A DNA stretch of 59,110 nt, counting the filler, from an uncultured virus (IMG/VR IMGVR_UViG_2061766007_001796) (lineage: Duplodnaviria; Heunggongvirae; Uroviricota; Caudoviricetes). It is 6 parts of one record of this genome, joined end to end, with 100 filler letters (N's around TTAATTAATTAA, not from the genome) between each part and the next. Parts side by side here need not be neighbours in the genome. Positions count along the whole stretch, not along the records: positions 2,638 to 19,143 come from IMGVR_UViG_2061766007_001796; 5 more parts are not named here. One strand, 5' to 3'. The number at the start of each line of letters is the position of its first letter. Within the stretch, counting starts at the first letter, position 1. Position numbers and translations under genes: made by a program. This document shows, in pieces, positions 6,970-41,829 of the stretch. The notes under the pieces were generated by a model, which saw nothing but the letters and a program-made list of their open reading frames with translations, had not been told where the DNA came from and made no database searches.

Positions 6970-9900
6970 TGCTGGTGGCACATTAGCGTTTAATCAATTA
7001 GTGAATAATGGTAACTTTGCTAGTTCAAGTTTAACAGGGTTTTTCTCTGGGAGAGCAACAAGCACTGTGTCTAGTGGTGCTTGCCAAACAGTTGGCACAG
7101 CAAACGATTTCTATATTGAATGGACTTTCAAAACAGTAGCAGGTCATAAATACTTATCTTTTGTTACAGTAAAATGCGACCAATCATATACAAATTATGG
7201 AGTTAGAGTTTATAACTACTTTAATAATCTTGCCAACAACGTCCATACTGATACATTAACGAACACAAGTTATACCACAGTAAGTTTAATGTTTAGTCCA
7301 TCTTCAACCAACAATAATTCTTTATTAAGAATTGTGTGTCCTATTTATGATAGTAATGGTAGCAGTTTTACAAGTAAGAATTGGCAAATCTTTGACCTTA
7401 CCGATATGTTCGGTGGAACTATCGCAGATTATATCTACAACCTAGAACAAGCGACTGCTGGTGCTGGTGTAGCGTGGTTTAAGCGTTATTTCCCAAATAC
7501 CTATTACGCATATAACGCTGGCACATTAGTCAATGTCCAAACAAGTGGCAAAAAGTATGTTGGGTTTAATCAAGCAAAATCAATTACAGTAGGTAGTGCT
7601 ACTTATAGATATGGCGACGCTCTTGTTATTAACTGTGATTTATTACCAGATACATATTATTGTTTAAGTCTTGTTGGTAAAAATGGATATGTTTATTACA
7701 ACAACGAAGTGATTACTACTGGGTGGACACAATTATCTTGTAATGGCAACAGACAATATATTGTTTTAAAAACCATATCGGATTATGGCAAATTGTTAGC
7801 AAGCAAGACTGCTAATGGTTATGTATTCTTAAAGAACAACGCAGATAGTCAAACTAATGAGTTTAGCGATGTCTGCCTTAATTTCCACTACGATGGTGAA
7901 AGAGATGGCGAATACGAGCCATACGGAAGCAACGAATACGCATTAAGTCCTGTTGAATTGCGTGGTATTGCAAAGAAAGACGCACAAGGTAATCTCTACT
8001 TTGATGGTGATAGTTATACACCAGACGGTAAGGTTGTTAGAAGATATGCCATTGTTGATTTAGGTAGTTTGACTTGGTATAGAGCCAAATGGGGAAATAA
8101 TTATACTTTTTTAAGTGGTGGTATAGCGAGTTTAGTGAATTGGAATGTTCCTTATGGCGAATTAGAAAAACGATTTATGGTATCATCAAAGTTTTTAAGG
8201 GCGCAATTATGGGTTGTTGAAAATGGAGATGTTGATAATACTATCACAATTAGAAACTCTGGCGCAGAAGGAAGTATAGAAGTCCGTTGTGATACATATA
8301 CAGACGCTACTGCATTCAAAACAGCAATTTCTGGTATCTATCTCCTTTACGAACTTGCTACACCAACCGAAGAAACCACCGATACCTATCAAGAAACACA
8401 ACAAGTTGATAACTNNNNNNNNNNTGAAAACCAAGCAGTCACTAAAGAACTTAATAAAAAAGCATATATTGATGGCAACTACCAAACAATGTCCGTAGGC
8501 GAAGCAACCGATTTATCTACAACTCGTGTTATTGATAACCCAGAAGATAGTTGCCCACCGATTACAATGGGTGTTACTGGTGGCAATGCCGAAATTAGAA
8601 ATGGCTTGCAAAAGTTCCAATATATGGAAGGCAATAGCATTGTTTTTAATCAATTCTGCGATAGAACAACAGCGTTGACTGCAAGTAGTGGAAATCAACT
8701 ATGGGCGCAAGCAGGAAACGCTTTTAGCATTCCACAAGGTCATAAAGTTTTGTTTGCAGTCCACCAAGATATGACAATTGCAGAAGCGCAAAGAAATACT
8801 TTTCTTGCTTATTATAGTGGTGGAACAGTAGTTAAGCAAAGTGAAGCAAGCAATAGAAACTTGCAAGCAGGAACATATTATTGGATATTTACAACAACTG
8901 GCACATTAACTCATATTGGTATTTGGTTGCAAGGTTATGGTAGTGGAAATGCAAGTTATAGCAATTTCCAAGTCTTTGATTTAACCGCTATGGGATTAGC
9001 AGACATTACTACTTATGACGAGTTTAAATCTCGTTTCCCATTAGATTACTACGCCTATAATGCTGGCTCTATTTTAAGTGCTAAAACCAATGCCTTAATC
9101 AGTAGAAAAAGACAACAATGGGATGAAGTGTGGGAACAATACGGCATAAATGATACAACTGGATTACCAGACGAAACTAGTGGTCAAATAAGAAGCAAAA
9201 ACTTTATTCCAGTTATTCCTAATACCAATTATTATTTCCGTTGTAGCAATTCACCTTATCTTTGGGCATACGCTTATGATGAAAATGGAAATTACATAGA
9301 CCGAATTAGAAAAGATGGAGCAACAGACTTAAAAAATAAGTTTGCTCAAACACCAAATAATTGTAGATATTTGAAAATTAAAACATTAGAAACTACTTAC
9401 CACAATGACATTACCATTTCCGTTTACTTTGAAGATGGCGAAGGATATGACCAATACTATCCTTACGACCCACAAGTAGTTGAATTGCCTAACATTGAAT
9501 TACGAGCCATTGGTGATATTAAAGATATTGCCTATGCAAGTGGTGGTGGTAAGAGAAAAGTTTGGTTAGTAGATTTAGGAACATTAAACTGGAATTATTA
9601 TTCTTCTGGTAGTTATTTTTGGACAAACTTACCAAAAGCACCAAAAAACAAGACATTGAATATGATAATTTCAAATGGTGCTTATACAGTTGTTAAGGAT
9701 GGAACTACAAATAAGTCAATAAAAACTTGGGGTAATACAGACTTGCCTTTAAGAATTGTTATTACAGATAGTTCATTTACGGATGTAACAACGTTTACAA
9801 GTTCTTTGCAAAATGTTTACTTACTCTACGAACTTGCAACCGAAGAAGATTTAACCGAAAACGAAGGCTGGGTTGAAAATGTTGTCGTTGACAACTATGG

Positions 9901-10200
9901 CACACTAGAGTTCGTTACTGACCCACAACAAATCCCACAAGTCAAGCAACCATATTTCATTGAATACACAATTTCGTTGAAAGAGTTTTTAGATGGCGCA
10001 TATCAAAGAGCAAGTGGTAATCCACAAGAAATTGCTTTGGTTGAAGAAGTTGAACAACTTGAAAGTGATTTAGCAAATGGTAATGTTATTCCATTACTTG
10101 CCAACAATTTAAGTACCAAAGTAGTCCAAAACGATGTTGACGCTTTCAACTTTAGAACTGCTGGTGGCTCACTAGAAATCGGTGAAACTTGCAAAGTCAA
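6970..10200 (+). CDS. Tail fibre / receptor-binding protein, allele A (modules out of order across the gap at 8415-8424)
   Basis: Shares scaffold motifs with 11270-16015 (FNQLVNNGNFAS, YFPNTYYAYN.GTLV, NFHYDGERDGEYEPY, RRYAIVDLG.L.W, YELAT) but has different inserts. Confidence 0.75.
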
Positions 10201-10210
10201 NNNNNNNNNN

Positions 10211-11159
10211 TGAGGCGTGGCTCACTGACCATAGTGTTATGACCTTAATGAAATGGGTGTTTGACACGTTAGAGTTTGCTATTATTATGTCGTTTGTTTT
10301 AAGAAAGCCAGTCAAATGGTATTATGTTCTAGTGTTTTATGGCATTGCCATGATATTTGCTGGCTTTATTCATGTGCCTATGATTTTTTATAGGCTATAT
10401 CCTTTTGCGTTTTATTTTCTAGTACCAATACTAGACATGTTTATTGAAGACAAACGTTTTAGTGTAAAGAACTATGGCTTTGAAATGATTAGATTTGTTA
10501 TAGCAATGGCTGTCGTCTTTACGCTTCAAATTATGATTTTTGTAATCAAAAGCGGAAGTTTCACGGTGGAAAGAAAAGATTTTTCTTTGTCTGCCAACTT
10601 TTGCTATGCAATAGAATATGACATTGCCCTATTAGTAATTCTATATACATTAGAATTATTTATACATAGGGAGAAAGGAGACGGCAAATTATGGACGATG
10701 TACCATGGTGCTGGTTTATCTTCCCAGATTTCGAAGAAGAAATCGCGGAGATTGAAACTGACGAAGACACAGAAGAATAGGCTTTTTTGGCTTTACGCTA
10801 AGTTCTATCTTACTCAACTTGGTGCGTTCTTACTTTTAATGGTTTTGCCTTTCTTTTTAGGCAAATTATTTGAGTTCCTAATGATGTATTTAGCATTCGC
10901 GCTTGCTAGATACTTACTTGGGTTCAAGTATTCNNNNNNNNNNNNNNNNNNNNNNNNNNNNNNNNNNNNNNNNNNNNNNNNNNNNNNNNNNNNNNNNNNN
11001 NNNNNNNNNNNNNNNNNNNNNNNNNNTTTATTGGGAGTTGGGTTAGCGGTGCTTCTCCACTTATCTTATAAATACAAAGGCATGTTTCTCTTTGCTCAAG
11101 TTGCTAGACCCGATAAGTTCGCTGAATTATACGTGATTATGGATGGAGCAACTATATAA
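10211..11159 (+). CDS. Multi-TM protein with C-terminal AgrB-like domain, allele 1 (5' part and catalytic motif in gaps)
   Basis: Homologous to 16992-18143; ends identically in DGATI-stop. Confidence 0.75.
10691..10780 (+). CDS. Nested out-of-frame AgrD-like propeptide MDDVPWCWFIFPDFEEEIAEIETDEDTEE (29 aa), allele 1
   Basis: AAGGAG at 10675-10680 then ATG; Cys plus four hydrophobic residues followed by an acidic tail; same length and stop position in allele 2. Confidence 0.8.
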   Translation: MDDVPWCWFIFPDFEEEIAEIETDEDTEE

Positions 11160-11197
11160 CATATATTTTTTAGTATCAATCGCATTNNNNNNNNNNT

Positions 11198-14100
11198 GGT
11201 ACAACCGTTGTTCCAAAAGCCCAAAAAGACGAAAGTGGCAACAACATCAAATCAACTTATGTTGCTGATATGACACATGCTTTAAGCGGTAGCACAACAC
11301 AAGTTACTTTGTCAATTAGTTTGAGAAACAAATTGGGTGAAGTCGTTTCTTCCTTTAATCAAGCCATTGGTGGTGCGTCTTCAACCTATGCTGGCATTTT
11401 AACTTCTGCCGATAAAGTCAAGATTGACGCTATTGCTGGTGACATTGCTACTGCGCTTGCTCAAGCAAAGGCATACTCAGACGCACTCGTAGCACGTGCT
11501 AACTTAGTGACCATCATTGGTAACGCCAGTTCTAGTTTAAGTGGCTTAATGAGCGCTACTGATAAAACTAATCTTGACACTTTGATGGCGTTATTAGGTA
11601 GCAATGACGCTGATACGGTTGTTGACACAATCAGAGAAGTTCTTGCTATTTTTGAAAACTACCCAGAGGGTGCAGACCTCGTTGGTGAACTTGCTAAAAA
11701 AGTTAATGTTCTTGACATTGTCAACGTTTTAACAAGCGACGAAACTGCTAAACCATTAAGTGCTAAGCAAGGTAAAGTTTTAAAAGGTCTTATCGACGCA
11801 TTAGACAGTGCTAAAGCAAACGCTAGTGATGTCTATACAAAAGGCACAATTGATACTCTCTTAAGCGGTAAAGCCGATAAGAGCGATACATATACAAAGG
11901 CTGAAATCCAATCTTTAATTGCTGGTTTCGTTTTTGCGGATATTGACGACGAACTTGACGAAGAAAGCACAAACGCTATCGAAAACCAAGCAGTCACTAA
12001 AGAACTTAATAAAAAAGCGTATATTGATGGTAACTATCCAACTTTAATTGTTGGTCAAGCGGATAGTATTACAAGCAACAGAGTTATTGAAGATATTGAC
12101 CAAGCGTGTCCTCCAATTACGATTGGAACAACTGGTGGCGAAGCGGAAATTGCCGACGGTTTTAGCAGATTTAAAGAATTATATGGTAATTCTTTTGTTT
12201 GGAACAGTTTATTTAAAATAAGAACCAACGCTTCTACTTATTTAGGCGTTACTTGCACCCCAAACGCAAACGGTTCAATTACCTTAACTGGCGGTATCAC
12301 TGGAAATGACAACGCTTACATTAACTTAACAAGTGCAAAGTTTAGGCTTGTTAATGGTCATAAATATTTAGTGTTGGGCGCTAGTGCTTTGTGTAGTGCT
12401 ATTACAAACTCGTTTGTTCACATTAACTTAACTGGTAGCAATATGACACAAGTTACGAGCGACAGCATTATAACTTGTGGAGTTAATGGTGAAGCATATT
12501 TCTATTTGCTTATTCCAACCTCCGCTACAAGCGTTAACTTTACTGGCTTCTTCCAAATCTATGACCTTACAATGATTTATGGTAGTGGTAAAGAGCCAAC
12601 TACGGTTGACGAGTTTAAATCTCGTTTCCCTAATAATTACTACGCTCACGACGCAGGAACACCGATTTCTTCAAAATCTTATCAACTTATTTCTCGTGGA
12701 GAAAATCAATGGAACGAAGAATGGGGTTGCTATCACTGGGTTGGCGGAACTAGACACGATTACGCTAACGGTATTGGTTGCTCTGAACCAGTGAGAGTTA
12801 TTGGTGGTGAAACTTACTATTTCGAATACCCAGCGGGTGCAACAATAGGTTTTGTAACCCTTGATATTAACGGCAATTTAATTGGTGCTAATGATAATTA
12901 TGTAAACAATTCGAGCCATAGAACAACCCTCCCACAAAACTGTGCTTATATTGGCTTTTGGGTTAACAATTATGGTTTGGTATATCATAACGATGTTATG
13001 GTTCGTTTGTATTGGGATACACCTAATAGAAACTATGTCGCAAACGATTTTCAAGTAGTCGATTTGCCAAACATTGAATTAAGAAGTGTTGGAGATGTTG
13101 AAGACGTTTTATATTCAACTGGTGGTGGTAAGAGAAGGATTGGAAAGTTAATTGTAGATGGCACAAACAATACTAATATGAGTGTTGCCACAAGTAACAA
13201 TATCACAAGATTTACTGTTGATATTTCTAACGCAAAGGCGCCTGCTGGTAATTATTACATTGCAGAAACATTGTTGTCTGCCTTTGAAAACGTTAGTTTC
13301 GACGATATAGCAGGATATAACGGTTCGTTAACAAAAAACAGCGTTGCCTTATATAGTTCGACTAGAATTAGTTTTTATGTAGTTGGCAAAACAACATTGG
13401 CTGAATACCAAGCGTATTTCCAAAGCAACCCATTAACAGTTTTATTTGAACTAGCCGAAGAACAAGATATAACCGAAAACGAAGGCTGGGCTGAACTTGT
13501 AAAAGTTAATAACTTTGGCACATTAGAGTTTGTTTCAAATCCACAACAAGTTCCACAGCCAGAGCAAGCGTATTATATAGAATATACTGCAAATTATGTT
13601 GACTTTATTGATACAGCGTTTGCTAACACGGATGGTGACGCAAACAACTTTGTTGTAAGAGGCGAGTTTGAAGACGTTATCGAAGGTAGAACAGTGGTTG
13701 CTAAAGCACAACTTGCAGACAATCTTGATAGTAAAGTAGTCCGAAACGATGTTGACGCTTACACATTTAGAACTGCTGGTGGCTCACTAGAAATCGGTGA
13801 AACTTGCAAAGTCAAAGAAATCGTTGGTGGCACATTAGCGTTTAATCAATTAGTGAATAATGGTAACTTTGCAAGTAATAGTGGTTGGTTAGGTGCAAAA
13901 GGTTCTGTCTCAATAAGCAACAATACACTTATTTACACCGCAACAGAAATTGCCAATAACTACTATGACAACTATGCTTATCAAGATGTTTATTCAAGAG
14001 TAGTTGTTGGACATAAATACTTGGCTATTTGTTACGCAAAATCATCAAAAGCATTCCCATCAAGATTGTTTGTTTCTGGTTCTAGCATTATTGCTAGGAA

Positions 14101-16015
14101 TGTTGTTAATTTAACAAATAGTTACTCTATGTTATATGGTTTCTTCCAAATCACAGGAATTGCTTGGAATAGATTAGAAGTCTCACCAGATATGTCAACT
14201 TTAGGTGCAGTTAATGATACAATTCAAGTTCAGAACTTTGTATTATTTGACCTTACTGCTATGTTTGGTTCAACTATTGCCGATTATATCTGCTCGTTAG
14301 AAACTGCAACTGCTGGTGATGGTGTGGCTTGGTTTAAAAAGTATTTCCCAAATACCTATTACGCATATAACACTGGCACATTAGTTAATGTTAAAACAAG
14401 TGGCAAAAAGTATGTTGGGTTTAATCAATTAGATTTAGTGAATTATAAAGGAACACTGGCAAGAATATCTGCTTATAGCACAACCGCTAGTGATATTACA
14501 ATTACCACAGACGGAACGAATACAGACTGCTATGTCGGTAGCGTTACAGCACCTACATTAAACCCAACAAATGATTTACCAATTAAAGTAGTTGGTGGGC
14601 AATCTTATAATTTATCTGTTACTTTGCCAACAAATGTTTCAAATGTTACTAGATTTGCTATGTGCTTTGGTTGGTATGACGCTAACTTTAACTACATCAA
14701 CTTCAACTGGATGGACTTTGGCAAAGTTGCAGGCAGTAGAATAAGTGCCAACAAAACAGCACCAGAAAACGCTAGATATATGACAGTAAGATTTGGTGTT
14801 AATCAAACTGCTATGAGCGTTGAAACATTTACTTTCAAAGATATTTGTGTCAACTTCCACTACGACGGTGAAAGAGATGGCGAATATGAGCCATACGAAG
14901 AACACACATGCCAATATGAAGATATTGATTTAATCGGTATTTCAAAAATTGACGCACAAGGTAATCTATACTTTGATGGCGACAGTTATACACCAGACGG
15001 TAAGGTTACTAGAAGATATGCCATTGTTGATTTAGGAACGCTAAATTGGAAAAAAGATAATGGTTATACTGATGTATTCTATGTTAGTGATTTAACTGGA
15101 ATTAAAAGAGTAGGTGGTAATGACTTATCTAACATTATTGCAAGCCAAAGATATGCAACAGCAATTCAATCGCAAGTTAGTGGAACAAATGCTCAATATG
15201 ACAAAACAATTTCAACATTAAACTGGACTGATGGTTTATTGTTAAGAGATAGTAGTTATAGTGATAAAGATGTTTTGAAATCAAGTTTAAGTGGTGTTTA
15301 TCTTGTCTATGAACTTGCAACTGAAACCGAAGAAACCACCGATACCTATCAAGAAACACAACAAGTTGATAACTGGGGAACTGAACAATACTTACCACCA
15401 GAAGAAGATACAAGACCATGCGAAATACCAGTAGGTCATAGCACAGACTACTTGCTTGACATTCGTTCAAAGGTTGAGATTATGCCAGATTTACCAAGCG
15501 ACGATGGTGTCTATGCTTGTAAAGTTGAAAGCGGAACTGCTGAATATGTGCCATTAGGTGCTTGGTTAAGCGATAATGGTTATGTAAATCAAATTAGTGC
15601 TAACGCTATTAAAGAAAACATTGGTGGATTGTTAAGACACCAATTAGTGGCGCAAGTTGTCGCTGGAGGCGGAACATTAGATTTTAATAACACTGCTTGG
15701 GTCGATTTAGGAACATTAGACAACTGGTCTAGTAACACAACAAGCGGTGCTTCAAAACGATTATTCCAAAGCGTTAGTTTGGCTAATTTGGCTAAGAAGC
15801 CATCAAGCAGTGGAACAAAAGCAAATATCTTATGCGTTATATATAAGACAGTTGACGCTAATACTCAATGGACTGACGCAACTACATCAAATATCGGTTT
15901 GACTAATAGTGGAACACTAACCATTTTAGACCAAACAAAACAGAGTTTAGACGCAACTGCATTCAAAAATGCTATGAAAGGTGTATTACTTGCCTACGAG
16001 AAAGCGAGTTCATAA
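11198..16015 (+). CDS. Tail fibre / receptor-binding protein, allele B, two tandem modules with CBM-like inserts
   Basis: About 1600-codon open frame; fibre-type N-terminal repeats (LSAKQGKVLKGLID, KADKSDTYTKAEI); repeated VDLGTL.W and YELA motifs. Confidence 0.8.
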   Translation, partial: GTTVVPKAQKDESGNNIKSTYVADMTHALSGSTTQVTLSISLRNKLGEVVSSFNQAIGGASSTYAGILTSADKVKIDAIAGDIATALAQAKAYSDALVARANLVTIIGNASSSLSGLMSATDKTNLDTLMALLGSNDADTVVDTIREVLAIFENYPEGADLVGELAKKVNVLDIVNVLTSDETAKPLSAKQGKVLKGLIDALDSAKANASDVYTKGTIDTLLSGKADKSDTYTKAEIQSLIAGFVFADIDDELDEESTNAIENQAVTKELNKKAYIDGNYPTLIVGQADSITSNRVIEDIDQACPPITIGTTGGEAEIADGFSRFKELYGNSFVWNSLFKIRTNASTYLGVTCTPNANGSITLTGGITGNDNAYINLTSAKFRLVNGHKYLVLGASALCSAITNSFVHINLTGSNMTQVTSDSIITCGVNGEAYFYLLIPTSATSVNFTGFFQIYDLTMIYGSGKEPTTVDEFKSRFPNNYYAHDAGTPISSKSYQLISRGENQWNEEWGCYHWVGGTRHDYANGIGCSEPVRVIGGETYYFEYPAGATIGFVTLDINGNLIGANDNYVNNSSHRTTLPQNCAYIGFWVNNYGLVYHNDVMVRLYWDTPNRNYVANDFQVVDLPNIELRSVGDVEDVLYSTGGGKRRIGKLIVDGTNNTNMSVATSNNITRFTVDISNAKAPAGNYYIAETLLSAFENVSFDDIAGYNGSLTKNSVALYSSTRISFYVVGKTTLAEYQAYFQSNPLTVLFELAEEQDITENEGWAELVKVNNFGTLEFVSNPQQVPQPEQAYYIEYTANYVDFIDTAFANTDGDANNFVVRGEFEDVIEGRTVVAKAQLADNLDSKVVRNDVDAYTFRTAGGSLEIGETCKVKEIVGGTLAFNQLVNNGNFASNSGWLGAKGSVSISNNTLIYTATEIANNYYDNYAYQDVYSRVVVGHKYLAICYAKSSKAFPSRLFVSGSSIIARNVVNLTNSYSMLYGFFQITGIAWNRLEVSPDMSTLGAVNDTIQVQNFVLFDLTAMFGSTIADYICSLETATAGDGVAWFKKYFPNTYYAYNTGTLVNVKTSGKKYVGFNQLDLVNYKGTLARISAYSTTASDITITTDGTNTDCYVGSVTAPTLNPTNDLPIKVVGGQSYNLSVTLPTNVSNVTRFAMCFGWYDANFNYINFNWMDFGKVAGSRISANKTAPENARYMTVRFGVNQTAMSVETFTFKDICVNFHYDGERDGEYEPYEEHTCQYEDIDLIGISKIDAQGNLYFDGDSYTPDGKVTRRYAIVDLGTLNWKKDNGYTDVFYVSDLTGIKRVGGNDLSNIIASQRYATAIQSQVSGTNAQYDKTISTLNWTDGLLLRDSSYSDKDVLKSSLSGVYLVYELATETEETTDTYQETQQVDNWGTEQYLPPEEDTRPCEIPVGHSTDYLLDIRSKVEIMPDLPSDDGVYACKVESGTAEYVPLGAWLSDNGYVNQISANAIKENIGGLLRHQLVAQVVAGGGTLDFNNTAWVDLGTLDNWSSNTTSGASKRLFQSVSLANLAKKPSSSGTKANILCVIYKTVDANTQWTDATTSNIGLTNSGTLTILDQTKQSLDATAFKNAMKGVLLAYEKASS

Positions 16016-16027
16016 AGGAGATAACTT

Positions 16028-16171
16028 ATGATACATAAAATTGATAAAGGTGATTATTACTTAATCAAAGCCGATAGTGGCAAACTTCGTATCAAAGGTG
16101 ACGACAGAGTTTATAGCGGGGCTACTGAACTCAAAGACAAGCCACGTGAATATGAGGAAGTAATCGACTAA
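16028..16171 (+). CDS. Small protein (47 aa) after the tail fibre
   Basis: AAGGAG RBS; conserved allele at 16847-16990. Confidence 0.75.
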   Translation: MIHKIDKGDYYLIKADSGKLRIKGDDRVYSGATELKDKPREYEEVID

Positions 16172-16265
16172 TATGAAACTTCTAAAGGATAGTTTATATC
16201 TCACGAAACCTCAGTGGCGTAAATTATTCTTGGCGACGACTATTATGGTTGTCGCNNNNNNNNNN

Positions 16266-16833
16266 AGAACAATACTTACCACCAGAAGAAGACACAAGAC
16301 CATGTGAAATCCCAGTCGGTCATAGCACAGACTACTTGCTTGATATTAAGTCAAAAGTAGAAATCGCACCAGATTTACCAAGTGACGATGGTGTATATGC
16401 TTGCAAGGTTGAAAGTGGAACTGCCGAATATGTGCCATTAGGAACTTGGTTAAGTGATAATGGGTATGTAAATCAAATTAGTGCTAACGCAATTAAAGAA
16501 AACATTGGTGGTGCGTTAAGACATCAACTTGCTGAAAGTGCTAATATTGATTTCCATAATACAGCGTGGGTTGATTTAGGCGATTTGAATTGGGGATATG
16601 GAAATAATAGATTTAGTGCGACTGTAAGTGGTGCTGTGTCTGTTTCTCATAATTGTTTATGTCCATTATATAAAACCGCTGATGGTTGGGCTTCAAACCC
16701 AAGAGTTGATATGGAAATGTCATTTGGCTCAAATAGTTTATTATTTGTTCAAAACAATTCTTACACCGACGCAACAGCATTCAAAAACGCTATGAAAGGT
16801 GTATTACTTGCATACGAGAAAGCGAGTTCATAA
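16266..16833 (+). CDS. Tail fibre C-terminus, alternative allele
   Basis: Matches 15383-16015 with a different terminal insert; same end ...KGVLLAYEKASS. Confidence 0.8.
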
Positions 16834-16846
16834 GGAGGACTAATTT

Positions 16847-16990
16847 ATGGTTCACAAAATTGATAAAGGTTCTTATTTCTTAATCAAAGCCGATAGTGGC
16901 AAACTTCGTATTAAAGGTGACGACAGAGTTTATAGTGAGGCTACTGAACTCAAAGACAAGCCACGTGAATATGAGGAAGTAATTGACTAA
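16847..16990 (+). CDS. Small protein (47 aa), allele of 16028-16171
   Basis: AAGGAGG RBS; MVHKIDKGSYFLIKADSGKLRIKGDDRVYSEATELKDKPREYEEVID. Confidence 0.75.
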   Translation: MVHKIDKGSYFLIKADSGKLRIKGDDRVYSEATELKDKPREYEEVID

Positions 16991-16991
16991 T

Positions 16992-18143
16992 ATGAAACTT
17001 CTTAAGGATAGTTTATATCTCACAAAACCTCAGTGGCGTAAATTATTCTTGGCGACGACTATTATGGTTGTCGCCCTTTATATCGTTGCAATGGTTTTCT
17101 CGTTGTGCGGTAGCAAGTATTTTATTCTCAATTATCAAAACGAACAAATGGATAGGATACAAAATTGGCTAGAGAAGTATAATTTATCTAACGTAATCAA
17201 TTCAGTCTTTTGCGCCATAGAGTTTTTCATAATTGCAACTTTTATGGTTAAAAAGCCACCAAAGTGGTATCTCGTATTAGCATTTATAGTGTTGCCTTTG
17301 GTGCCACACTATATTTTCGGAAAACTACCAGACATTTATTATTCAGCATATCCATTTTTGTTTTATTTAATAGCACCGCTATTCTGTAAAAAGTTTGGCA
17401 AGGATTATGCCTTTTGTCTTTTGAGATTGTTAATTGCTATGGTTGTTGTTTTTATTTTACAAATAATGATATTTATTATTAAAAGCGGTGGATTAACTTT
17501 TGAAACTGTCATTTTTCCATTATCCAGTGCTTTTATTTATGCTTTAGAATACGATATAGCCTTATCAATAGTGCTTTTTACGATTGCGCTATTTTCCGAT
17601 AAGGAGAAAGGAGACAGCAAATCATGGGCGATTTCCCACAATGTTGGTTCATTTTCCCAGACTTCGAAGAAGAAGTCGCGGAAATTGAGTTTGACGAAGG
17701 CACAGAAGAATAGGCTTTTTTGGCTTTACGCTAAGTTCTATCTTACTCAANNNNNNNNNNTTCTTTGGTTAAGATTTTATCTTATTCAACTTGGTGGATT
17801 TTTACTTTTAATGGTTTTGCCTTTTCTTTTAGGAAAGGTTTTTGAGTTCTTGACCATGTATTTAGCATTCGCGCTTGCTAGATACTTACTTGGGTTCAAG
17901 TATTCGCTCCATTTTAAGAAAGAAACACTTTGTATTACCGTTGGCGCGGTAGTCTTCGGCATATTGTCACTTGCTGTCCCTTTCTTTTATGTCGTAGTCA
18001 TTATGGCTATCTTATTAGGAGTTGGGTTAGCGGTGCTTCTTCACTTATCTTATAAATACAAAGGTATGTTCTTGTTTGCGCAAATATCTAAACCCGATAA
18101 GTTCGCGGAGTTATATGTGCTTATGGATGGAGCAACTATATAA
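16992..18143 (+). CDS. Fusion membrane protein: about six N-terminal TM helices plus AgrB-like peptide-processing domain, allele 2
   Basis: ARYLLGFKYSL-H-FKKETL-C gives the R...H-x6-C arrangement of AgrB (His 17910-17912, Cys 17931-17933) after a TM hairpin; one gap join at 17751-17760. Confidence 0.75.
   Translation: MKLLKDSLYLTKPQWRKLFLATTIMVVALYIVAMVFSLCGSKYFILNYQNEQMDRIQNWLEKYNLSNVINSVFCAIEFFIIATFMVKKPPKWYLVLAFIVLPLVPHYIFGKLPDIYYSAYPFLFYLIAPLFCKKFGKDYAFCLLRLLIAMVVVFILQIMIFIIKSGGLTFETVIFPLSSAFIYALEYDIALSIVLFTIALFSDKEKGDSKSWAISHNVGSFSQTSKKKSRKLSLTKAQKNRLFWLYAKFYLTQXXXXLWLRFYLIQLGGFLLLMVLPFLLGKVFEFLTMYLAFALARYLLGFKYSLHFKKETLCITVGAVVFGILSLAVPFFYVVVIMAILLGVGLAVLLHLSYKYKGMFLFAQISKPDKFAELYVLMDGATI
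17624..17713 (+). CDS. Nested out-of-frame AgrD-like propeptide MGDFPQCWFIFPDFEEEVAEIEFDEGTEE (29 aa), allele 2
   Basis: AAGGAG RBS; residues 7-17 identical to allele 1 with four synonymous changes. Confidence 0.8.
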   Translation: MGDFPQCWFIFPDFEEEVAEIEFDEGTEE

Positions 18144-18168
18144 CATATATTTTTTAGTATCAATCGCA

Positions 18169-18197
18169 TTGATAACAGTGCATAAATTATATATAAT
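18169..18197 (+). promoter_or_regulatory. sigmaA-type promoter TTGATA-N17-TATAAT for the endonuclease (probably leaderless transcript)
   Basis: Near-consensus boxes; ATG 8 nt after the -10 with no SD. Confidence 0.65.
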
Positions 18198-18205
18198 ATA
18201 AGTGT

Positions 18206-18958
18206 ATGAAAAATGAAAGCCTTTTTTATGTTTATGAATGGTTCGTTAAGAATACTGGCGAAGTCTTTTATGTTGGTAAAGGTTGCGGTAATAGATATAA
18301 AAGCACATCTAAGCGAAATAAGTGGTTCAAGGACTATATTAAAGCGTTTGAGTGCGAAGTAAGAATTATCAAACGTTTTGAAAACGAAGAAGAAGCGTTT
18401 GCTTTTGAACATAAAAGGATTATGGAACTCAAAGCGAGCAATTTAGCCAAAGCAAACCTTGATTATGGTGGCAAGGGTGGCAGTCATTTTGATTGGACTG
18501 ACGAGATGAAACAATACAAATCAGAGTACAACCCTATGAAATCATTTGAGCAACGCCAAAGAATGAAAGAAAATAACCCTATGAAGAACAAGCAAACGCA
18601 AGACATCGTTTACAATAAAACAAGAAAAAAAGTAGTCTTAAATGGTGTTATTTATAGTGGCGTTTTAGAGGCTTCACGAGTGACTAAGCACACAAGCAGT
18701 ACGATAGTTAAGTGGTGCAGACGTGGTTATGATAACAATGGCAAGCCTTGCAGGTATTTTAACGAAACACAAAAAGAAATACCTCTGGTTAAACAACTTC
18801 ACCCAAAATCAGCAACACCAAAAGCAGTCGTTGTAGACGGGGTTAGATTTGAAACGGTAGAAGACGGTGCTAAACATATTGGTGGCAACAGCAGTAATCT
18901 TATAAGGGCAATAAAAGCACATAGAGCGTATCTAGGTCACACTTGCTCATACGCATAA
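18206..18958 (+). CDS. GIY-YIG homing endonuclease with C-terminal NUMOD-like DNA-binding repeats
   Basis: YVYEW...FYVGKG..NR, later E (AFAFEH) and N (LANL..GG.G); NPM repeats; two HTH-like repeats. Confidence 0.8.
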   Translation: MKNESLFYVYEWFVKNTGEVFYVGKGCGNRYKSTSKRNKWFKDYIKAFECEVRIIKRFENEEEAFAFEHKRIMELKASNLAKANLDYGGKGGSHFDWTDEMKQYKSEYNPMKSFEQRQRMKENNPMKNKQTQDIVYNKTRKKVVLNGVIYSGVLEASRVTKHTSSTIVKWCRRGYDNNGKPCRYFNETQKEIPLVKQLHPKSATPKAVVVDGVRFETVEDGAKHIGGNSSNLIRAIKAHRAYLGHTCSYA

Positions 18959-19012
18959 CAATTACTGCTACAACACAAGTGGGTAGCCTATCTTTCGACG
19001 CTNNNNNNNNNN

Positions 19013-19143
19013 GCTTTTAATGGTTTTGCCTTTTGTTTTAGGCAAATTATTTGAGTTCCTAATGATGTACTTTGCATTCGCGCTTGCTAGGTGCTTACTT
19101 GGGTTCAAGTATTCGCTCCATTTTAAGAAAGAAACACTTTGTA
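19013..19143 (+). CDS. AgrB-like domain fragment, further allele
   Basis: LLMVLPFVLGKLFEFLMMYFAFALARCLLGFKYSLHFKKETLC; H-x6-C conserved. Confidence 0.7.
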
Positions 19144-19243
19144 NNNNNNNNNNNNNNNNNNNNNNNNNNNNNNNNNNNNNNNNNNNNTTAATTAATTAAN
19201 NNNNNNNNNNNNNNNNNNNNNNNNNNNNNNNNNNNNNNNNNNN

Positions 19244-32254: not shown

Positions 32255-32354
32255 NNNNNNNNNNNNNNNNNNNNNNNNNNNNNNNNNNNNNNNNNNNNTT
32301 AATTAATTAANNNNNNNNNNNNNNNNNNNNNNNNNNNNNNNNNNNNNNNNNNNN

Positions 32355-33858
32355 CTTTAACGAACAAGTTAAAAAAGGATTTAAAGAAAACGGCAAGTAT
32401 CTCTCAAGCAAGTATAAAGAACTTAACCACGTTCCATTAGAAATGGTTGAAGAGTATTACCCAACCTCTGCTGTGGGCGATAAAGCGCCAGATATTGCAA
32501 ACGCTATGAAAGGTTCCATTAGTCCACGTGACTGGGGCATTGCGTTTATGCAAAAGCGTGTTAGCCGTACTAATGCCCGTTATAATTTAGATGGCGATGT
32601 TTTTAGAGATATTAACAATCAAATTGAAACATTAACTAACTGGGCGAACTTTGCTCCTTGGTATAGAGAATGGACAACCATTCTTAATAGTTCGCCATTT
32701 GGCAAAGGTAGTTCATTATATGCAATCGGTTGTAAGTCCATCTATGGATTTAAAGAATTGGTCGATTTTATCAACAAGACCGCTCTCGGTATTCCATATA
32801 TTCAAAATACTTCCTTACTATCTAAAGCCGACAATACGATTGGTGGCGTTTTNNNNNNNNNNNNNNNNNNNNNNNNNNNNNNNNNNNNNNNNNNNNTTAA
32901 TTAATTAANNNNNNNNNNNNNNNNNNNNNNNNNNNNNNNNNNNNNNNNNNNNGAAGACATCTTATACAAACGAGCAAGGCGAGGAAATCAAACTCACAAG
33001 CGCNNNNNNNNNNGTATCGCGAAAGCGCTTTAGCAAGAGCAACTGGTATTGCACCTACAAGCAAACTAGGGAAACTTCTTTACTACACTAATGGCGATGT
33101 TGATATGGCTAAATACATTATGTCCCTCCAAAACTTATCGGTTATCAAAGAAGACAAAAAACATACTCGTAAAGAGAATGTTATCTCCGCGATTAACAAG
33201 ATNNNNNNNNNNGCCTACAAGCAAACTAGGGAAACTCCTTTACTACACTAATGGCGATGTTGATATGGCAAAATACATCATGTCACTTCAAAACTTATCG
33301 GTTATCAAAGAGGACAAAAAACATACTCGTAAAGAGAATGTTATCTCCGCGATTAACAAGATGGCAGGGTTTAATAGACAAGAAAAACTCTTGCTTGCGT
33401 ACTTAAGCGGGTATAATGTTAGTGAGAAGAACCAACAATCTATGATTATGTTCTTAATGAGCAAGGGCTTTGACAAAAAGACTGCCAAGGATTTCCTTAA
33501 AATTGAAAAGTAACCCAANNNNNNNNNNNNNNNNNNNNNNNNNNNNNNNNNNNNNNNNNNNNNNNNNNNNNNNNNNNNNNNNNNNGGTATTATCGTTCAC
33601 TCTTTCACACTAGAGTATCATTGCTTCGCAAATATAAACTAATATAGTTCACTCTCTACCAGTCATTACCACTAATTGACTGGTTTTTTGCTACCCACGA
33701 CGACCCNNNNNNNNNNCAGCAGACAAGAAAAACTCTTGCTTGCTTACTTAAGCGGGTATAATGTTAGTGAAAAGAACCAACAATCTATGATTATGTTCTT
33801 AATGAGCAAGGGTTTTGACAAAAAGACTGCCAAGGATTTCCTTAAAATTGAAAAGTAA
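32355..33858 (+). CDS. Further fragments and C-terminus of the giant protein (...KTAKDFLKIEK)
   Basis: 32355-32852 is an allele of 28324-28822; the C-terminus appears twice (stops at 33513 and 33858). Confidence 0.6.
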
Positions 33859-36034: not shown

Positions 36035-36534
36035 AGCAAGTCCTCCAAGTCTTTTTTATCTTTGCTACGTGTGTAGTGGATGTAATACTTCATTGTGGTC
36101 TCAAGCGACGTGTGACCTAGGTGTTCTTGAACCTCTTTGAGGTCATAACCTTTATCAAACATACGTGTCGCAAATGAGTGGCGTAATCCGTGAAGCGTGA
36201 TGTGTTGCAAACCAGCAAGTTCAAGGTGCTTATTCACGATGTCACGTATCTTGTGCCTGCTTACGTGAGCGCTNNNNNNNNNNATGACCTAGGTGCTCTT
36301 GAACCTCTTTGAGGTCGTAACCTTTGTCAAACATGCGTGTCGCAAATGAGTGGCGTAATCCGTGAAGCGTAATATGTTGCAAACCCGCAAGTTCGAGGTG
36401 CTTATTCACGATGTCACGTATCTTGTGCCTGCTTACGTGAGCGCTATTCGCTCCACAGAAGATAAACTCGTCAGCGTCAACCGCTCTTTCCTCAACATAC
36501 TTTTTGAGTTCTTCCATGAACGCCATTGGTAAGT
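36031..36534 (-). CDS. int: Tyrosine integrase, C-terminal catalytic fragments
   Basis: HGLRHSFAT (HxxR), HLGH, TTMKYY. Confidence 0.9.
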
Positions 36535-36566
36535 NNNNNNNNNNGTAATTAAATGTCCAAGGTATT

Positions 36567-36962
36567 TCACTCATATAACCACCTTCTAACGGTAGCAAAC
36601 TCTTCTTCAGTCAACGGCAATTGACCACCAACAATTTTTGAATACTCGTTGTATTCTTCGCAAGTTTCTAAAACATCGAAAGCACCAATGTTCACTTTTT
36701 TGTTTTTAACAATTTCTGAGGCTTCGAGGTCTTTTACCATTTTCATTACTTTGCTTTCGTCAATACCGATAAGCAAATCGATGTTCTTTTCTCTGCCGAT
36801 TTCTCTTAGATTGAATATAATGCTGTCGTCGATGGCTCTTAATCTCATAGTCGCCATATTAGTTACTAATTTACTAACAAAGTCGCCATCCGTAAAATTA
36901 TCATTTTTGGTTATCTTTGGTTCGCATACAATACGATAAATAAACTTGTGTTCGTCGTTCAT
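36567..36962 (-). CDS. Hypothetical protein present in only one variant
   Basis: GGAGG RBS; sits between the ASCH gene and the Cys-rich gene start. Confidence 0.65.
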   Translation of the reverse strand: MNDEHKFIYRIVCEPKITKNDNFTDGDFVSKLVTNMATMRLRAIDDSIIFNLREIGREKNIDLLIGIDESKVMKMVKDLEASEIVKNKKVNIGAFDVLETCEEYNEYSKIVGGQLPLTEEEFATVRRWLYE

Positions 36963-37702: not shown

Positions 37703-39591
37703 TTCAATTCTTCCTTATTGCTCTCTTTAATGACCGCTTTATCAAGGTCATAATAAATGTCACAGTATGTGCTGTCCCACGCGTCGTCAACATCGCTTAA
37801 GTACATAGTGTGTTTAGTGTCAATAGGATACCAAGACCTATTCCCACCGCCTTGTCTAGNNNNNNNNNNNNNNNNNNNNNNNNNNNNNNNNNNNNNNNNN
37901 NNNNNNNNNNNNNNNNNNNNNNNNNNNNNNNNNNNNNNNNNNNNNNNNNNNNNNNNNNNNNNNNNNNNNNNNNNNNNNNNNNNNNNNNNNNNNNNNNNNN
38001 NNNNNNNNNNNNNNNNNNNNNNNNNNNNNNNNNNNNNNNNTTTAATCCAGTTAATAGCGTAGTGTTTTTGTTCGTTAGCAATCATTTCTTTGAGGTCTTC
38101 GTCAGAGACAGGCTCTTCGTCTTTCATTAAGCGGAGACCTCTTAATCTTCGTATTTCGATATTATTATCAGTGAGGATGTTTCCTAAATCCTCTATTTTA
38201 GCGTAAGCACCTAAATCCATTTAATTACCNNNNNNNNNNNNNNNNNNNNNNNNNNNNNNNNNNNNNNNNNNNNTTAATTAATTAANNNNNNNNNNNNNNN
38301 NNNNNNNNNNNNNNNNNNNNNNNNNNNNNTATGGTTCTTTCCTCAACATACTTTTTGAGTTCTTCCATGAACGCCATTGGTAAGTGAACGTATCTATCGT
38401 GACCAGTTTTTGTGTGGTCTTTAAGAACGCCATTATTACCCACTTGCTTACGTATGACTATAAAACCGTGTGTAAAGTCTACGCAGTTTAGNNNNNNNNN
38501 NGTTCATTTTCGCTACATAGATAAGACCTTTGTCAGTTTCAATAGCATATAACCATTCAAAGGCAAGCGAATATTGCCCTAAATCAGCAACTGCATATTC
38601 TTCTCTCGCATACATTTGATATATCTTGCCATCTTTTCTTAACACAAACCAGTCACACAATTCTTCAATAGTGTCGGCTGAGGCAACAATGCTTTCTTTA
38701 TNNNNNNNNNNNNNNNNNNNNNNNNNNNNNNNNNNNNNNNNNNNNNNNNNNNNNNNNNNNNNNNNNNNNNNNNNNNNNNNNNNNNNNNNNNNNNNNNNNN
38801 NNNNNNNNNNNNNNNNNNNNNNNNNNNNNNNNNNNNNNNNNNNNNNNNNNNNNNNNNNNNNNNNNNNNNNNNNNNNNNNNNNNNNNNNNNNNNNNNNNNN
38901 NNNNNNNNNNNNNNNNNNNNNNNNNNNNNNNNNNNNNNNNNNNNNNNNNNNNNNNNNNNNNNNNNNNNNNNNNNNNNNNNNNNNNNNNNNNNNNNNNNNN
39001 NNNNNNNNNNNNNNNNNNNNNNNNNNNNNNNNNNNNNNNNNNNNNNNNNNNNNNNNNNNNNNNNNNNNNNNNNNNNNNNNNNNNNNNNNNNNNNNNNNNN
39101 NNNNNNNNNNNNNNNNNNNNNNNNNNNNNNNNNNNNNNNNNNNNNNNNNNNNNNNNNNNNNNNNNNNNNNNNNNNNNNNNNNNNNNNNNNNNNNNNNNNN
39201 NNNNNNNNNNNNNNNNNNNNNNNNNNNNNNNNNNNNNNNNNNNNNNNNNNNNNNNNNNNNNNNNNNNNNNNNNNNNNNNNNNNNNNNNNNNNNNNNNNNN
39301 NNNNNNNNNNNNNNNNNNNNNNNNNNNNNNNNNNNNNNNNNNNNNNNNNNNNNNNNNNNNNNNNNNNNNNNNNNNNNNNNNNNNNNNNNNNNNNNNNNNN
39401 NNNNNNNNNNNNNNNNNNNNNNNNNNNNNNNNNNNNNNNNNNNNNNNNNNNNNNNNNNNNNNNNNNNNNNNNNNNNNNNNNNNNNNNNNNNNNNNNNNNN
39501 NNNNNNNNNNNNNNNNNNNNNNNNNNNNNNNNNNNNNNNNNNNNNNNNNNNNNNNNNNNNNNNNNNNNNNNNNNNNNNNNNNNNNNNNNNN

Positions 39592-40855: not shown

Positions 40856-41829
40856 GCGTATAACTATAAAACCATGTGTAAAGTCTACACAATTTAGTGT
40901 AATTGCTTGCCATTCGCCAATACGCAATGCCCCATAGAATAATGTTAGCACAGGGACACGCCATTCACTATCTATTTCTTCAAAAGAAGAAATAAACTTT
41001 CTAACATCTTCTTCTCCGTTGACGAAAAAGTTTTCNNNNNNNNNNGGTAATTGCTTGCCATTCGCCAATACGCAATGCCCCATAGAATAATGTTAGCACA
41101 GGGACACGCCATTCACTATCTATTTCTTCAAATGAAGAAATAAACTTTCTAACATCTTCTTCTCCGTTGACGAAAAAGTTTTCTTTTTCAGTAATACGAG
41201 ACGTTTCTTTTAAAGGTTCGAGTAGGTCAATTGCGTCGTCCGCCATTTCACGTGAGATATACTTCCTCTTTTTAGCGAACTTGAGGAGATTTTTAACCGC
41301 GACTAACTTATTGTTCACGGTCTTTTCTTTAAGCCCTTTAGAAGCCAAATTAGCGCGAAAAGTATCGACGTTAGATATTTCAAACGCTTTATCAACTTTA
41401 GTGGTGTCGCCTAAAACTGGGTAAAGATAGTTTTTGAACGCCAATTTATAGTTATAAATTGTGTCGTCGTCTATGCCCTCGCTTTTGCAAACACGATAAA
41501 AAGCCTCGCATAATTGCTCAAGTGTAAGTGCGTCTCCCTCGTGCCAACTGATNNNNNNNNNNCAACTTATTGTTCACTGTCTTCTCTTTAAGCCCTTTAG
41601 AAGCCAAATTAGCGCGGAAAGCGTCGACATTAGATATTTCAAACGCTTTATCAACTTTAGTGGTGTCGCCTAAAACTGGGTAAAGATAGTTTTTGAATGC
41701 CAATTTATAGTTATAAATTGTGTCGTCGTCTATTCCCTCACTTTTGCAAACACGATAAAACGCCTCGCATAATTGTTCGAGTGTAAGTGCGTCTCCCTCG
41801 TGCCAACTGATTTTTCTTTTGGTCTTATC
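40856..41829 (-). CDS. int: Integrase middle fragments from several alleles
   Basis: Overlapping copies of LAFKNYLYPVLG...TVNNKL...LFYGALRIGEWQAIT. Confidence 0.8.

Follow-up and report, generated by a model that had tools for sequence, protein, structure and literature searches.

A phage-borne protein family that joins a six-helix membrane domain to an AgrB-type catalytic core and, in nearly all relatives, to a predicted helix-turn-helix domain

The window analysed here is a 59,110-nucleotide stretch of DNA from an uncultured virus of the Caudoviricetes (IMG/VR IMGVR_UViG_2061766007_001796), and its subject is a gene for a membrane protein that a first-pass annotation had read as a hypervariable transmembrane (TM) bundle fused to an AgrB-like domain. 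The gene belongs to an undescribed phage-borne family whose members have a predicted cytoplasmic N-terminus, a six-helix domain, a basic linker that is predicted to be disordered, an AgrB-type core and, in nearly all relatives, a predicted helix-turn-helix (HTH) domain at the C-terminus. No description of this family, or of an AgrB-HTH fusion, was found in the literature searched, judged mostly from listings and abstracts. The window also carries two large tail-fibre open reading frames (ORFs; Pfam phage-fibre repeats), YqaJ, RecT, integrase fragments and a cI-like HTH, from which we take the element to be a temperate phage. A high share of the window DNA is present only in bovine gut metagenome runs, from one sample. 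The parts of the gene and the features around it are collected in Table 1.

Table 1. Features of the membrane protein gene and its surroundings, in window coordinates.
Feature	Position	Strand	Basis
Target gene in the assembly (383 codons and a stop)	16992..18143	+	ORF list (ORF 16983/16992-18143)
N-terminal six-helix membrane domain, 204 amino acids (aa)	16992..17603	+	AlphaFold2 (AF2) model, alignments, per-block entropy
Cytoplasmic K/S/T-rich linker, EKGDS...SQTSKKKSRK...TKAQKN, predicted disordered	17604..17708	+	Predicted local distance difference test (pLDDT) 28-36, P0007 residues 220-251
AgrB-type four-helix peptidase core (activity predicted)	17709..18065	+	Pfam AgrB, invariant His/Cys, CDMH1 AgrB alignment
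C-terminal tail, MFLFAQISKPDKFAELYVLMDG + ATI + stop	18066..18143	+	Corresponds to first helix of the predicted HTH domain, cut after conserved DG
Promoter-like site TTGATA-17-TATAAT, 11/12, shortly before the endonuclease gene	18169..18197	+	Consensus match only; 9 such sites in region vs 10.6 expected by chance
GIY-YIG homing endonuclease gene, where relatives code the HTH	18206..18958	+	phrog_314, E 4.9e-14
Variant 'bubble' of 17805-17934 (AgrB-like core residues 264-306), 131 nucleotides (nt)	19013..19143	+	Repeat D3, 90% identity; X1 join
Second, divergent gene copy, spanning residue ~60 to an identical DGATI stop	10211..11159	+	BLASTP, 53% identity overall
Duplicate of the gene's first 27 codons, at the end of the preceding contig piece	16173..16255	+	Repeat D2, 94% identity

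The real protein is 370 aa long, not 383, because positions 17747-17785, which include a 10-N gap, are a scaffolding overlap, and 17746 joins 17786. Among contigs of four runs from the likely source sample, those of three runs (X2, X3, X4) connect 17746 directly to 17786, and a contig of the remaining run (X1) connects 17750 to 19013. The homolog P0001 is also 370 aa long, is 95% identical across the whole query and carries the variant found at 19013..19143; that piece is a variant bubble of 17805-17934 and not a third copy of the gene. The target protein matches no PHROGs family, no NCBIfam family matches the window protein or the homologs P0007 and P0029, and a tblastn search against 50,697 phage records gave no match. 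Sources that label the protein at all use one automatically assigned name, 'accessory gene regulator B family protein'.

The proposal that the first ~210 residues form six TM helices agrees with the AF2 models, in which six long helices fall within the first ~205-217 residues. They lie at residues 12-38, 66-86, 92-109, 114-131, 137-165 and 177-202 of the window N-domain (mean pLDDT 79.9, predicted TM-score 0.77) and at residues 15-41, 69-89, 95-112, 117-142, 151-180 and 192-217 of P0007 (mean pLDDT 74), and a Kyte-Doolittle scan at a threshold of 1.6 detects five of the six. A profile of 12 N-domains, run against 1.84 billion cluster representatives, finds 48 proteins, in all of which the domain is N-terminal and none of which is longer than 456 aa; those full-length members that were tested continue into the AgrB-like core and the HTH. 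The six-helix domain is thus confined to this one architecture, with no kinase fusion and no other arrangement among the 48, and its fusion to the AgrB-like core, described from the window alone, holds throughout the family.

The domain has no family in Pfam, PHROG or NCBIfam, and structure searches yield no convincing relative for it. Among Protein Data Bank (PDB) structures, the best Foldseek match has an E of 0.23 (CcmC, TM-score 0.31) and the best VIA matches, which are helical bundles of unrelated proteins, reach a Z of 5.9; neither an AgrC fold nor that of a transporter or receptor was prominent in these searches, a result that does not imply a novel fold. The whole AF2 model has no Foldseek match in the PDB at E <= 0.001, the family profile has 0 matches among PDB sequences at E <= 10, and the best score of an ESM Atlas search with the N-domain, 0.81, is at chance level. 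Two further ideas about the domain were rejected: an origin by internal duplication from the AgrB-like core (hhalign probability 0.1%), and a lipoprotein signal at the 'LCGS' that follows helix 1, whose Cys is not conserved.

Among 104 full-length homologs, mean pairwise identity is 0.42 over residues 61-195, 0.72 in the AgrB-like part and 0.48 in the HTH. The N-domain is therefore variable, as had been noted, but 'hypervariable' overstates the case, since it aligns end to end, keeps invariant polar residues and a conserved loop, and is nearly matched in variability by the HTH. Its polar core, the intramembrane residues E80, Q172, K179 and E201, is invariant. A strongly conserved external loop motif, GS.YFILNYQN.QMD.IE, and the segments LQ.MI.VIK.G and FIYAIEYDIAL complete a conserved centre around which the periphery varies.

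Behind a linker with a mean of 6.6 Lys and Arg residues (104 homologs) follows the half of the protein that had been called AgrB-like, a description that profile searches and residue conservation bear out. Pfam AgrB (PF04647) is matched at E <= 0.01 by 74 of 76 homologs and scores above its cut-off of 23 bits in P0007 (29.3), P0029 (28.4), P0120 (30.0) and P0164 (35.1); the window protein falls below it, at 18.1 bits (E 0.0018). The match spans profile positions ~10-118 of 185, and the AF2 model of P0007 gives this part four helices (residues 255-286, 289-306, 314-334 and 338-361), as against six in AgrB. R303, G307, H313 and C320 are invariant across 76 sequences, the last two as the His-x6-Cys of the motif SLH(F/Y)KKE..C, which in the window reads SLHFKKETLC with its His codon at 17910-17912 and its Cys codon at 17931-17933. 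When profiles are compared, H313 and C320 coincide with the His and Cys in the AgrB annotated for Clostridium phage CDMH1, though the comparison is weak overall (hhalign E 0.077). In Staphylococcus aureus AgrB, the excerpted text of PMC10482373 gives His77 and Cys84 as the catalytic dyad, and the excerpts of that paper and of PMC10885120 describe AgrB as clipping the C-terminal tail off AgrD. Given the partial profile match, the four helices, the conserved motif and the His/Cys alignment, we designate this half, from sequence and model, an AgrB-type catalytic core with predicted peptidase activity, not a full AgrB.

Counts of Lys and Arg in the loops fit the positive-inside rule for a protein of ten helices with both termini inside the cell. 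We accordingly predict ten TM helices in an N-in/C-in topology, in which, judged by these loop charges, both the HTH and the loop with the His/Cys pair are cytoplasmic.

The first-pass annotation had proposed looking for a C-terminal HTH or kinase output domain in homologs. Nearly all of them carry a predicted HTH, the window copy lacks it, and a kinase fusion occurs in none of the 48 representatives. Of 153 homologs found at E <= 0.001, most among the best 120 are 430-446 aa long, and after the shared motif KPDKFA.LY..DG they run on for ~60 residues (DGDL...). The AF2 model of P0007 accordingly has a C-terminal helical domain of ~70 aa behind its ten long helices. That domain (375/391-446; start residue 375) matches 1xsv at Z 7.7, SigR region 4 and SigF at Z 7.5 each and DosR at Z 7.4, with further matches down to Z 5.6, all in a range below 8 in which a match may reflect a common arrangement of helices. 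The matches cover 48-63 residues at a root-mean-square deviation of 1.0-2.7 Å, and ~35 of the top 50 are of the sigma region 4/LuxR type. Sequence profiles give sub-threshold support: GerE reaches 22.3 of the required 23.5 bits in P0002 (1 of 76 homologs), HTH_36 is matched below its cut-off by 7 of 76, the NCBIfam sigma70-ECF model scores 16.4 against a cut-off of 42.9 bits, and an RcsB match in P0002 is also below cut-off. We therefore predict, from the model, that the C-terminal domain of the relatives is a cytoplasmic HTH resembling sigma-70 region 4 and LuxR/GerE. With an HTH output in nearly all homologs, a signalling role is favoured over the export role that had been offered beside it.

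The combination is old, since a distant clade (P0140, P0152, P0158, P0164 and P0165) retains all three parts. Five distant-clade proteins (P0140, P0152, P0158, P0143 and P0153) share a start PIDY..PLGISK.EW, a core motif SLHFKSEL.C and an HTH segment K(V/I)EAIA...ITVEKRLT. In several members of the clade the protein breaks off early and finishes with low-complexity residues unrelated to the family, perhaps because of frameshifts or contig ends.

The window copy is truncated at the very start of this output domain. It ends ...FAELYVLMDG-ATI-stop where the nearest HTH-bearing relatives read ...FA(E/Q)LYVL(L/M)DGDLTPHHV..., and the same DG-ATI ending occurs in the other window variant and in P0001. 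A free-standing homing endonuclease gene begins 62 bases past the stop; besides its GIY-YIG family match it has a match to the I-TevI DNA-binding domain, at an E of 3.6e-4 that is below the cut-off. Because the gene is cut right after the DG codons and then followed by the endonuclease, we consider the window copy an output-less or split version of the family protein. No group I intron was found by Rfam at the gathering score, nor at E <= 10 on 18050-19002. An exact 44-nt search of IMG/VR for the sequence behind the endonuclease returned 0 matches, and no relatives of the endonuclease were found in that collection. The endonuclease is located precisely where the family has the conserved DG codons of its FDGD motif. 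P0095 (386 aa) ends ...FFDA at the same spot, perhaps through a contig-end truncation or an independent insertion there.

For the window copy, these features raise the alternative of a decaying remnant, a 370-aa protein left functionless when the endonuclease insertion removed its output domain. A stop three codons past the conserved DG fits this view, as do the lack of an intron model match and the failure of tblastn to find any HTH-coding stretch in the window. The HTH also has no stand-alone form: a search of a large protein collection gave no such protein, its two short matches both being C-terminal fragments of full-length proteins. Yet an intact 370-aa frame that includes the His and Cys persists in P0001 and in the two window variants, whose N-domains have diverged to 47% identity, which suggests continued selection, and contigs run past 19002 into sequence outside the window, where a downstream HTH exon or ORF may lie. 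Decay thus strikes us as a rather improbable account of the window copy.

The two copies of the gene in the window had been presented as alleles. The second is a variant contig placed there by the scaffolder, not a neighbouring or tandem paralog, and is bordered or interrupted by N runs at 10201-10210, 10934-11026 (masked) and 11187-11196. The 10-N gaps around the target gene coincide exactly with breaks in homology when the window is compared with itself: piece 6973-8414 repeats 13825-15374, piece 8425-10200 repeats 11981-13815, piece 10211-11186 repeats about 17150-18170, and piece 16266-17750 repeats 15383-16255 and onward. These gaps at homology breaks, together with the contig joins, identify the 'alleles' as variants of related phages from one sample. 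Comparison of the two remains valid as a comparison between strains, and the divergence first seen there is real. Identity is 67/142 (47%) in the N-domain, 36/49 (73%) in the linker and 80/92 (87%; masked residues excluded) in the AgrB-like part and tail, and the conserved islands YPF.FY, LQIMIF.IKSG and YA.EYDIAL all appear in the BLASTP alignment of the two copies. At the nucleotide level, the N-domain is mostly at 57-67% identity, with one 60-nt stretch at 72%; identity is 73% at 10661-10720 and then 83-95% from 10721 onward.

Such a rise within one gene is a mosaic pattern, and it could point to a protein of host interaction or superinfection exclusion, whose six-helix domain contacts a membrane component of the host or of an incoming phage and travels with the tail-fibre host-range module. 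The position of the gene, immediately behind those tail-fibre and chaperone genes that vary most, would suit this idea, as would the modest correlation (r 0.41) between distances in the N-variable region and in the AgrB core. N-variable similarity follows neither the upstream neighbour (r -0.17) nor the downstream gene c1 (r 0.05) in a small sample of 36 pairs from 9 loci, and a role of this kind would leave both the peptidase core and the HTH unexplained. Of all the functions considered, we find this one the hardest to credit.

A different explanation takes its cue from the Agr quorum-sensing loci. The protein would be an Agr-like pheromone factory, its core processing a separate or nested AgrD-like propeptide and its six-helix domain acting as an exporter or receptor that co-evolves with the peptide. 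The conserved AgrB-type catalytic core is compatible with this, and the temperate clostridial phage CDMH1 carries agrD, agrB and agrC beside its lysis and lysogeny genes. The AgrC sensor, too, is predicted to have six helices, according to the excerpted text of PMC10482373.

Evidence from the phage loci runs largely the other way. No histidine kinase or LytTR regulator occurs among the 56 window ORFs (Pfam; 7 + 49), in keeping with what had been seen by eye, the ~3.9 kb of N in the window being unreadable. Pfam AgrD has no match at E <= 1 in 92 small ORFs (ATG starts, 28-70 aa, within 1.5 kb, 7 loci) or in the 25-aa tail, with a profile that is weak for divergent peptides and a scan that covered ATG starts within 1.5 kb. 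Since the gap to the next gene is ~50-100 nt in the loci read, there is no space for a peptide gene, and the open alternative-frame stretches within the gene overlie the low-complexity linker and show no convincing conservation. The claim that the signal is packed into the locus as a nested peptide finds no support in these scans. Two candidates for such a peptide were rejected: the tail KPDKFA.LY..DG, which is the first helix of the predicted HTH in relatives and has no conserved Cys or Ser, and a 47-aa ORF at 16847-16990, which lacks hydrophobic character, does not precede the gene in the other loci and gives no match to AgrD.

Nor do the tests of the N-domain favour a peptide receptor. No covariation with the proposed tail was seen: distances in the N-variable region and in the tail give a partial r of 0.03 when AgrB-core distance is controlled for, a value reached by 106 of 500 permutations. 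The corresponding figure for the HTH is a partial r of 0.08 (30 of 500 permutations). The suggested likeness to an AgrC sensor also lacks support: hhalign aligns 12 columns of the N-domain with CDMH1 AgrC, the one AgrC sequence compared, at a probability of 0.3%, and none of the 48 representatives is fused to a kinase. An invariant polar core is ill-suited to a receptor that tracks a variable peptide, and a pheromone factory leaves the HTH fusion unexplained. We judge it unlikely.

The reading that we prefer, and hold tentatively as possible but short of probable, is that the protein is a single-polypeptide membrane signalling device in which the AgrB-type peptidase releases or controls a tethered HTH and the six-helix domain provides the input. 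The ten-helix protein would hold the HTH at the membrane; the adjacent peptidase would release or control it, in the way that AgrD loses its C-terminal tail to AgrB; and the six-helix domain would serve as an input or gating module. As part of this same tentative reading, the divergence of the N-domain between copies would reflect looser constraint on its periphery together with mosaic exchange among related phages, rather than covariation with a peptide.

Several observations weigh against the signalling device. Residues 364-373, which link TM helix 10 to the HTH, are modelled at pLDDT <50 and without being placed in the active site; in contrast to AgrD, no Cys or Ser is conserved in the segment that leads into the HTH; and cleavage at the C-terminus is itself a prediction. 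The AgrB match covers just ~10-118 of 185 profile positions, so two of the six AgrB helices are missing. The HTH is assigned at Z scores below 8 and at Pfam scores below cut-off, and ligand and DNA target are both putative. Finally, the window copy and P0001 have no HTH, so that either the output is dispensable or the window copy is defective.

LuxR/GerE-type domains work as small dimers. An uncleaved, membrane-anchored transcription factor in the style of ToxR, CadC or BcrR, with the helices as sensor or anchor, or with a peptidase that acts on another protein, would accord with this, with a modelled cytoplasmic HTH only ~12 residues from TM helix 10 and with the absence of an evident cleavage-site motif. 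The strict invariance of R303, H313 and C320 in 76 sequences and in the distant clade argues for retained catalysis over a mere anchor, and we give such a factor little credence. The most specific version of the preferred signalling device is a self-contained switch, in which a cue picked up within or across the membrane would act through the six-helix domain on the AgrB-type peptidase, which would cut its own C-terminal tail and free a GerE-sized HTH factor. This version is speculative and, as it stands, improbable.

Set beside the AgrB/FsrB/LamB family (PF04647; MEROPS C75, cysteine peptidases integral to the membrane), the phage protein shares homologs above the Pfam cut-off and a conserved Arg...Gly...His-x6-Cys, predicted to lie at the cytoplasmic face between two helices. 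It differs in matching the 185-position profile over ~110 positions and in having four helices where AgrB has a six-helix body of ~185-200 aa, in the 217-aa six-helix domain in front of the core and the predicted HTH behind it, and in that no AgrD-like partner, AgrC or AgrA was found with the phage gene (window ORFs, 7 loci, 48 representatives). CDMH1 is likewise a temperate phage of a low-GC Gram-positive host with an AgrB-type gene downstream of its tail-fibre genes; its AgrD (37 aa), AgrB (197 aa) and AgrC are canonical and come from genes of their own, AgrC being unlike the N-domain of the present family, where there is a single fused protein. The N-domain shares with the AgrC sensor a count of six TM helices and a divergence faster than that of the rest of the locus, and differs from it in sequence, in the lack of a HisKA/HATPase kinase in any of the 48 representatives and in its invariant polar core. 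According to the excerpt of PMC10482373, no AgrC sensor structure had been solved in 2023, and none appears among the structure matches of the N-domain.

Membrane regulators that are released or controlled by proteolysis include BlaR1/BlaI and the anti-sigma factor cascades, and membrane-bound one-component regulators include ToxR, CadC and BcrR. Systems of the BlaR1/BlaI and ToxR kinds likewise unite in one pathway a sensor in the membrane, a protease and an output that binds DNA, and the predicted HTH of the phage protein is of the sigma region 4/LuxR kind. The phage family would differ in combining all three in one polypeptide with a protease of the AgrB (C75) type, an arrangement not found in the literature searched.

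The genomic setting was read from 15 related loci (2 from IMG/VR, 1 from a Firmicutes metagenome-assembled genome and 12 from metagenomes, two near-duplicate pairs included). The gene has a fixed position: variable tail-fibre or chaperone genes precede it, and the genes c1 - c2 - c3 - c5 - c4 come next as a conserved run; c1-c2-c3 follows it in 11 of the 11 loci that extend past the gene (9 distinct phages), and is missing behind the window gene because the contig ends at 19143. The downstream module is seen at L004:9453-11657 and also in L001, L002, L003, L012 and L013, and no member has a known function. c1 is phrog_21718, c2 is an 86-87 aa protein rich in Gln, Asn and Pro, c3 (phrog_16490) has one hydrophobic helix, an HQQECCCNILR motif and a Cys-rich end, c5 is ~135 aa long and c4 is DUF7841. 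Between fibre and membrane protein in the window lies a conserved 47-aa ORF of no family, present at 16028-16171 and 16847-16990, which reads MxHKIDKG.Y.LIKADSGKLRIKGDDRVYS.ATELKDKPREYEEVID.

The window as a whole consists of contigs and pieces of scaffold strung together, which makes the order of genes across its gaps and linkers unreliable. It contains 75 N runs. The 100-nt linker at 19144-19243, read directly, consists of 44 N, TTAATTAATTAA and 44 N and marks a contig join; the same layout of 44 N, 12 bases and 44 N at 2538-2637, 32255-32354, 32853-32952 and 38230-38329 suggests linkers there too, and most of the remaining runs are 10-N scaffold gaps (~55). The 'tail fibre ORF' at 7001-10213 (1070 aa) is a chimera of permuted variant contigs read through 10-N gaps. 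Its part up to 8414 resembles residues ~853-1368 of the 1581-aa fibre (11270-16015), and its part at 8425-10200, which repeats 11981-13815 and so reveals the permutation, resembles residues ~238-848. Two alternative C-terminal fibre tips, 15383-16015 and 16266-16833, are 89% identical over their first ~260 nt and 95% over their last 66 nt, and diverge in the middle, and behind each of them stands the 47-aa ORF. The pattern resembles variation of a receptor-binding tip between phage strains that occur together. In this region the contig of one run has 306 other letters in place of 240 nt. The integrase fragments at 36242-36598 and 41001-41444 (- strand) comprise the catalytic part of a tyrosine integrase and an N-terminal SAM-like domain, with other genes and N runs between them, and are the product either of broken assembly or of two integrase remnants.

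For the reading of such records, the apparent tandem 'alleles' are scaffolded strain variants, and the label 'AgrB family protein' on these phage genes masks a different architecture. AgrB is familiar as an enzyme devoted to making cyclic quorum-sensing peptides; in the phage family its core is joined to a predicted DNA-binding domain and to a membrane domain without relatives elsewhere. The family is compact and offers obvious point mutants (His313, Cys320), which makes it directly testable. Release of the HTH by the peptidase, were it to occur, would open a new route from the membrane to gene expression and give temperate phages of gut and rumen bacteria a new mode of sensing. Should the self-contained switch exist, the freed HTH would reprogram phage or host transcription, for example in the lysis-lysogeny decision or at the late genes, in temperate phages whose hosts are Firmicutes of the rumen and gut, and the homing endonuclease would illustrate how such a switch becomes split or disabled. 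It would then be the first case of an Agr peptide-processing enzyme used for the cis-acting release of a transcription factor, and would add a new class to the sensory systems of phages.

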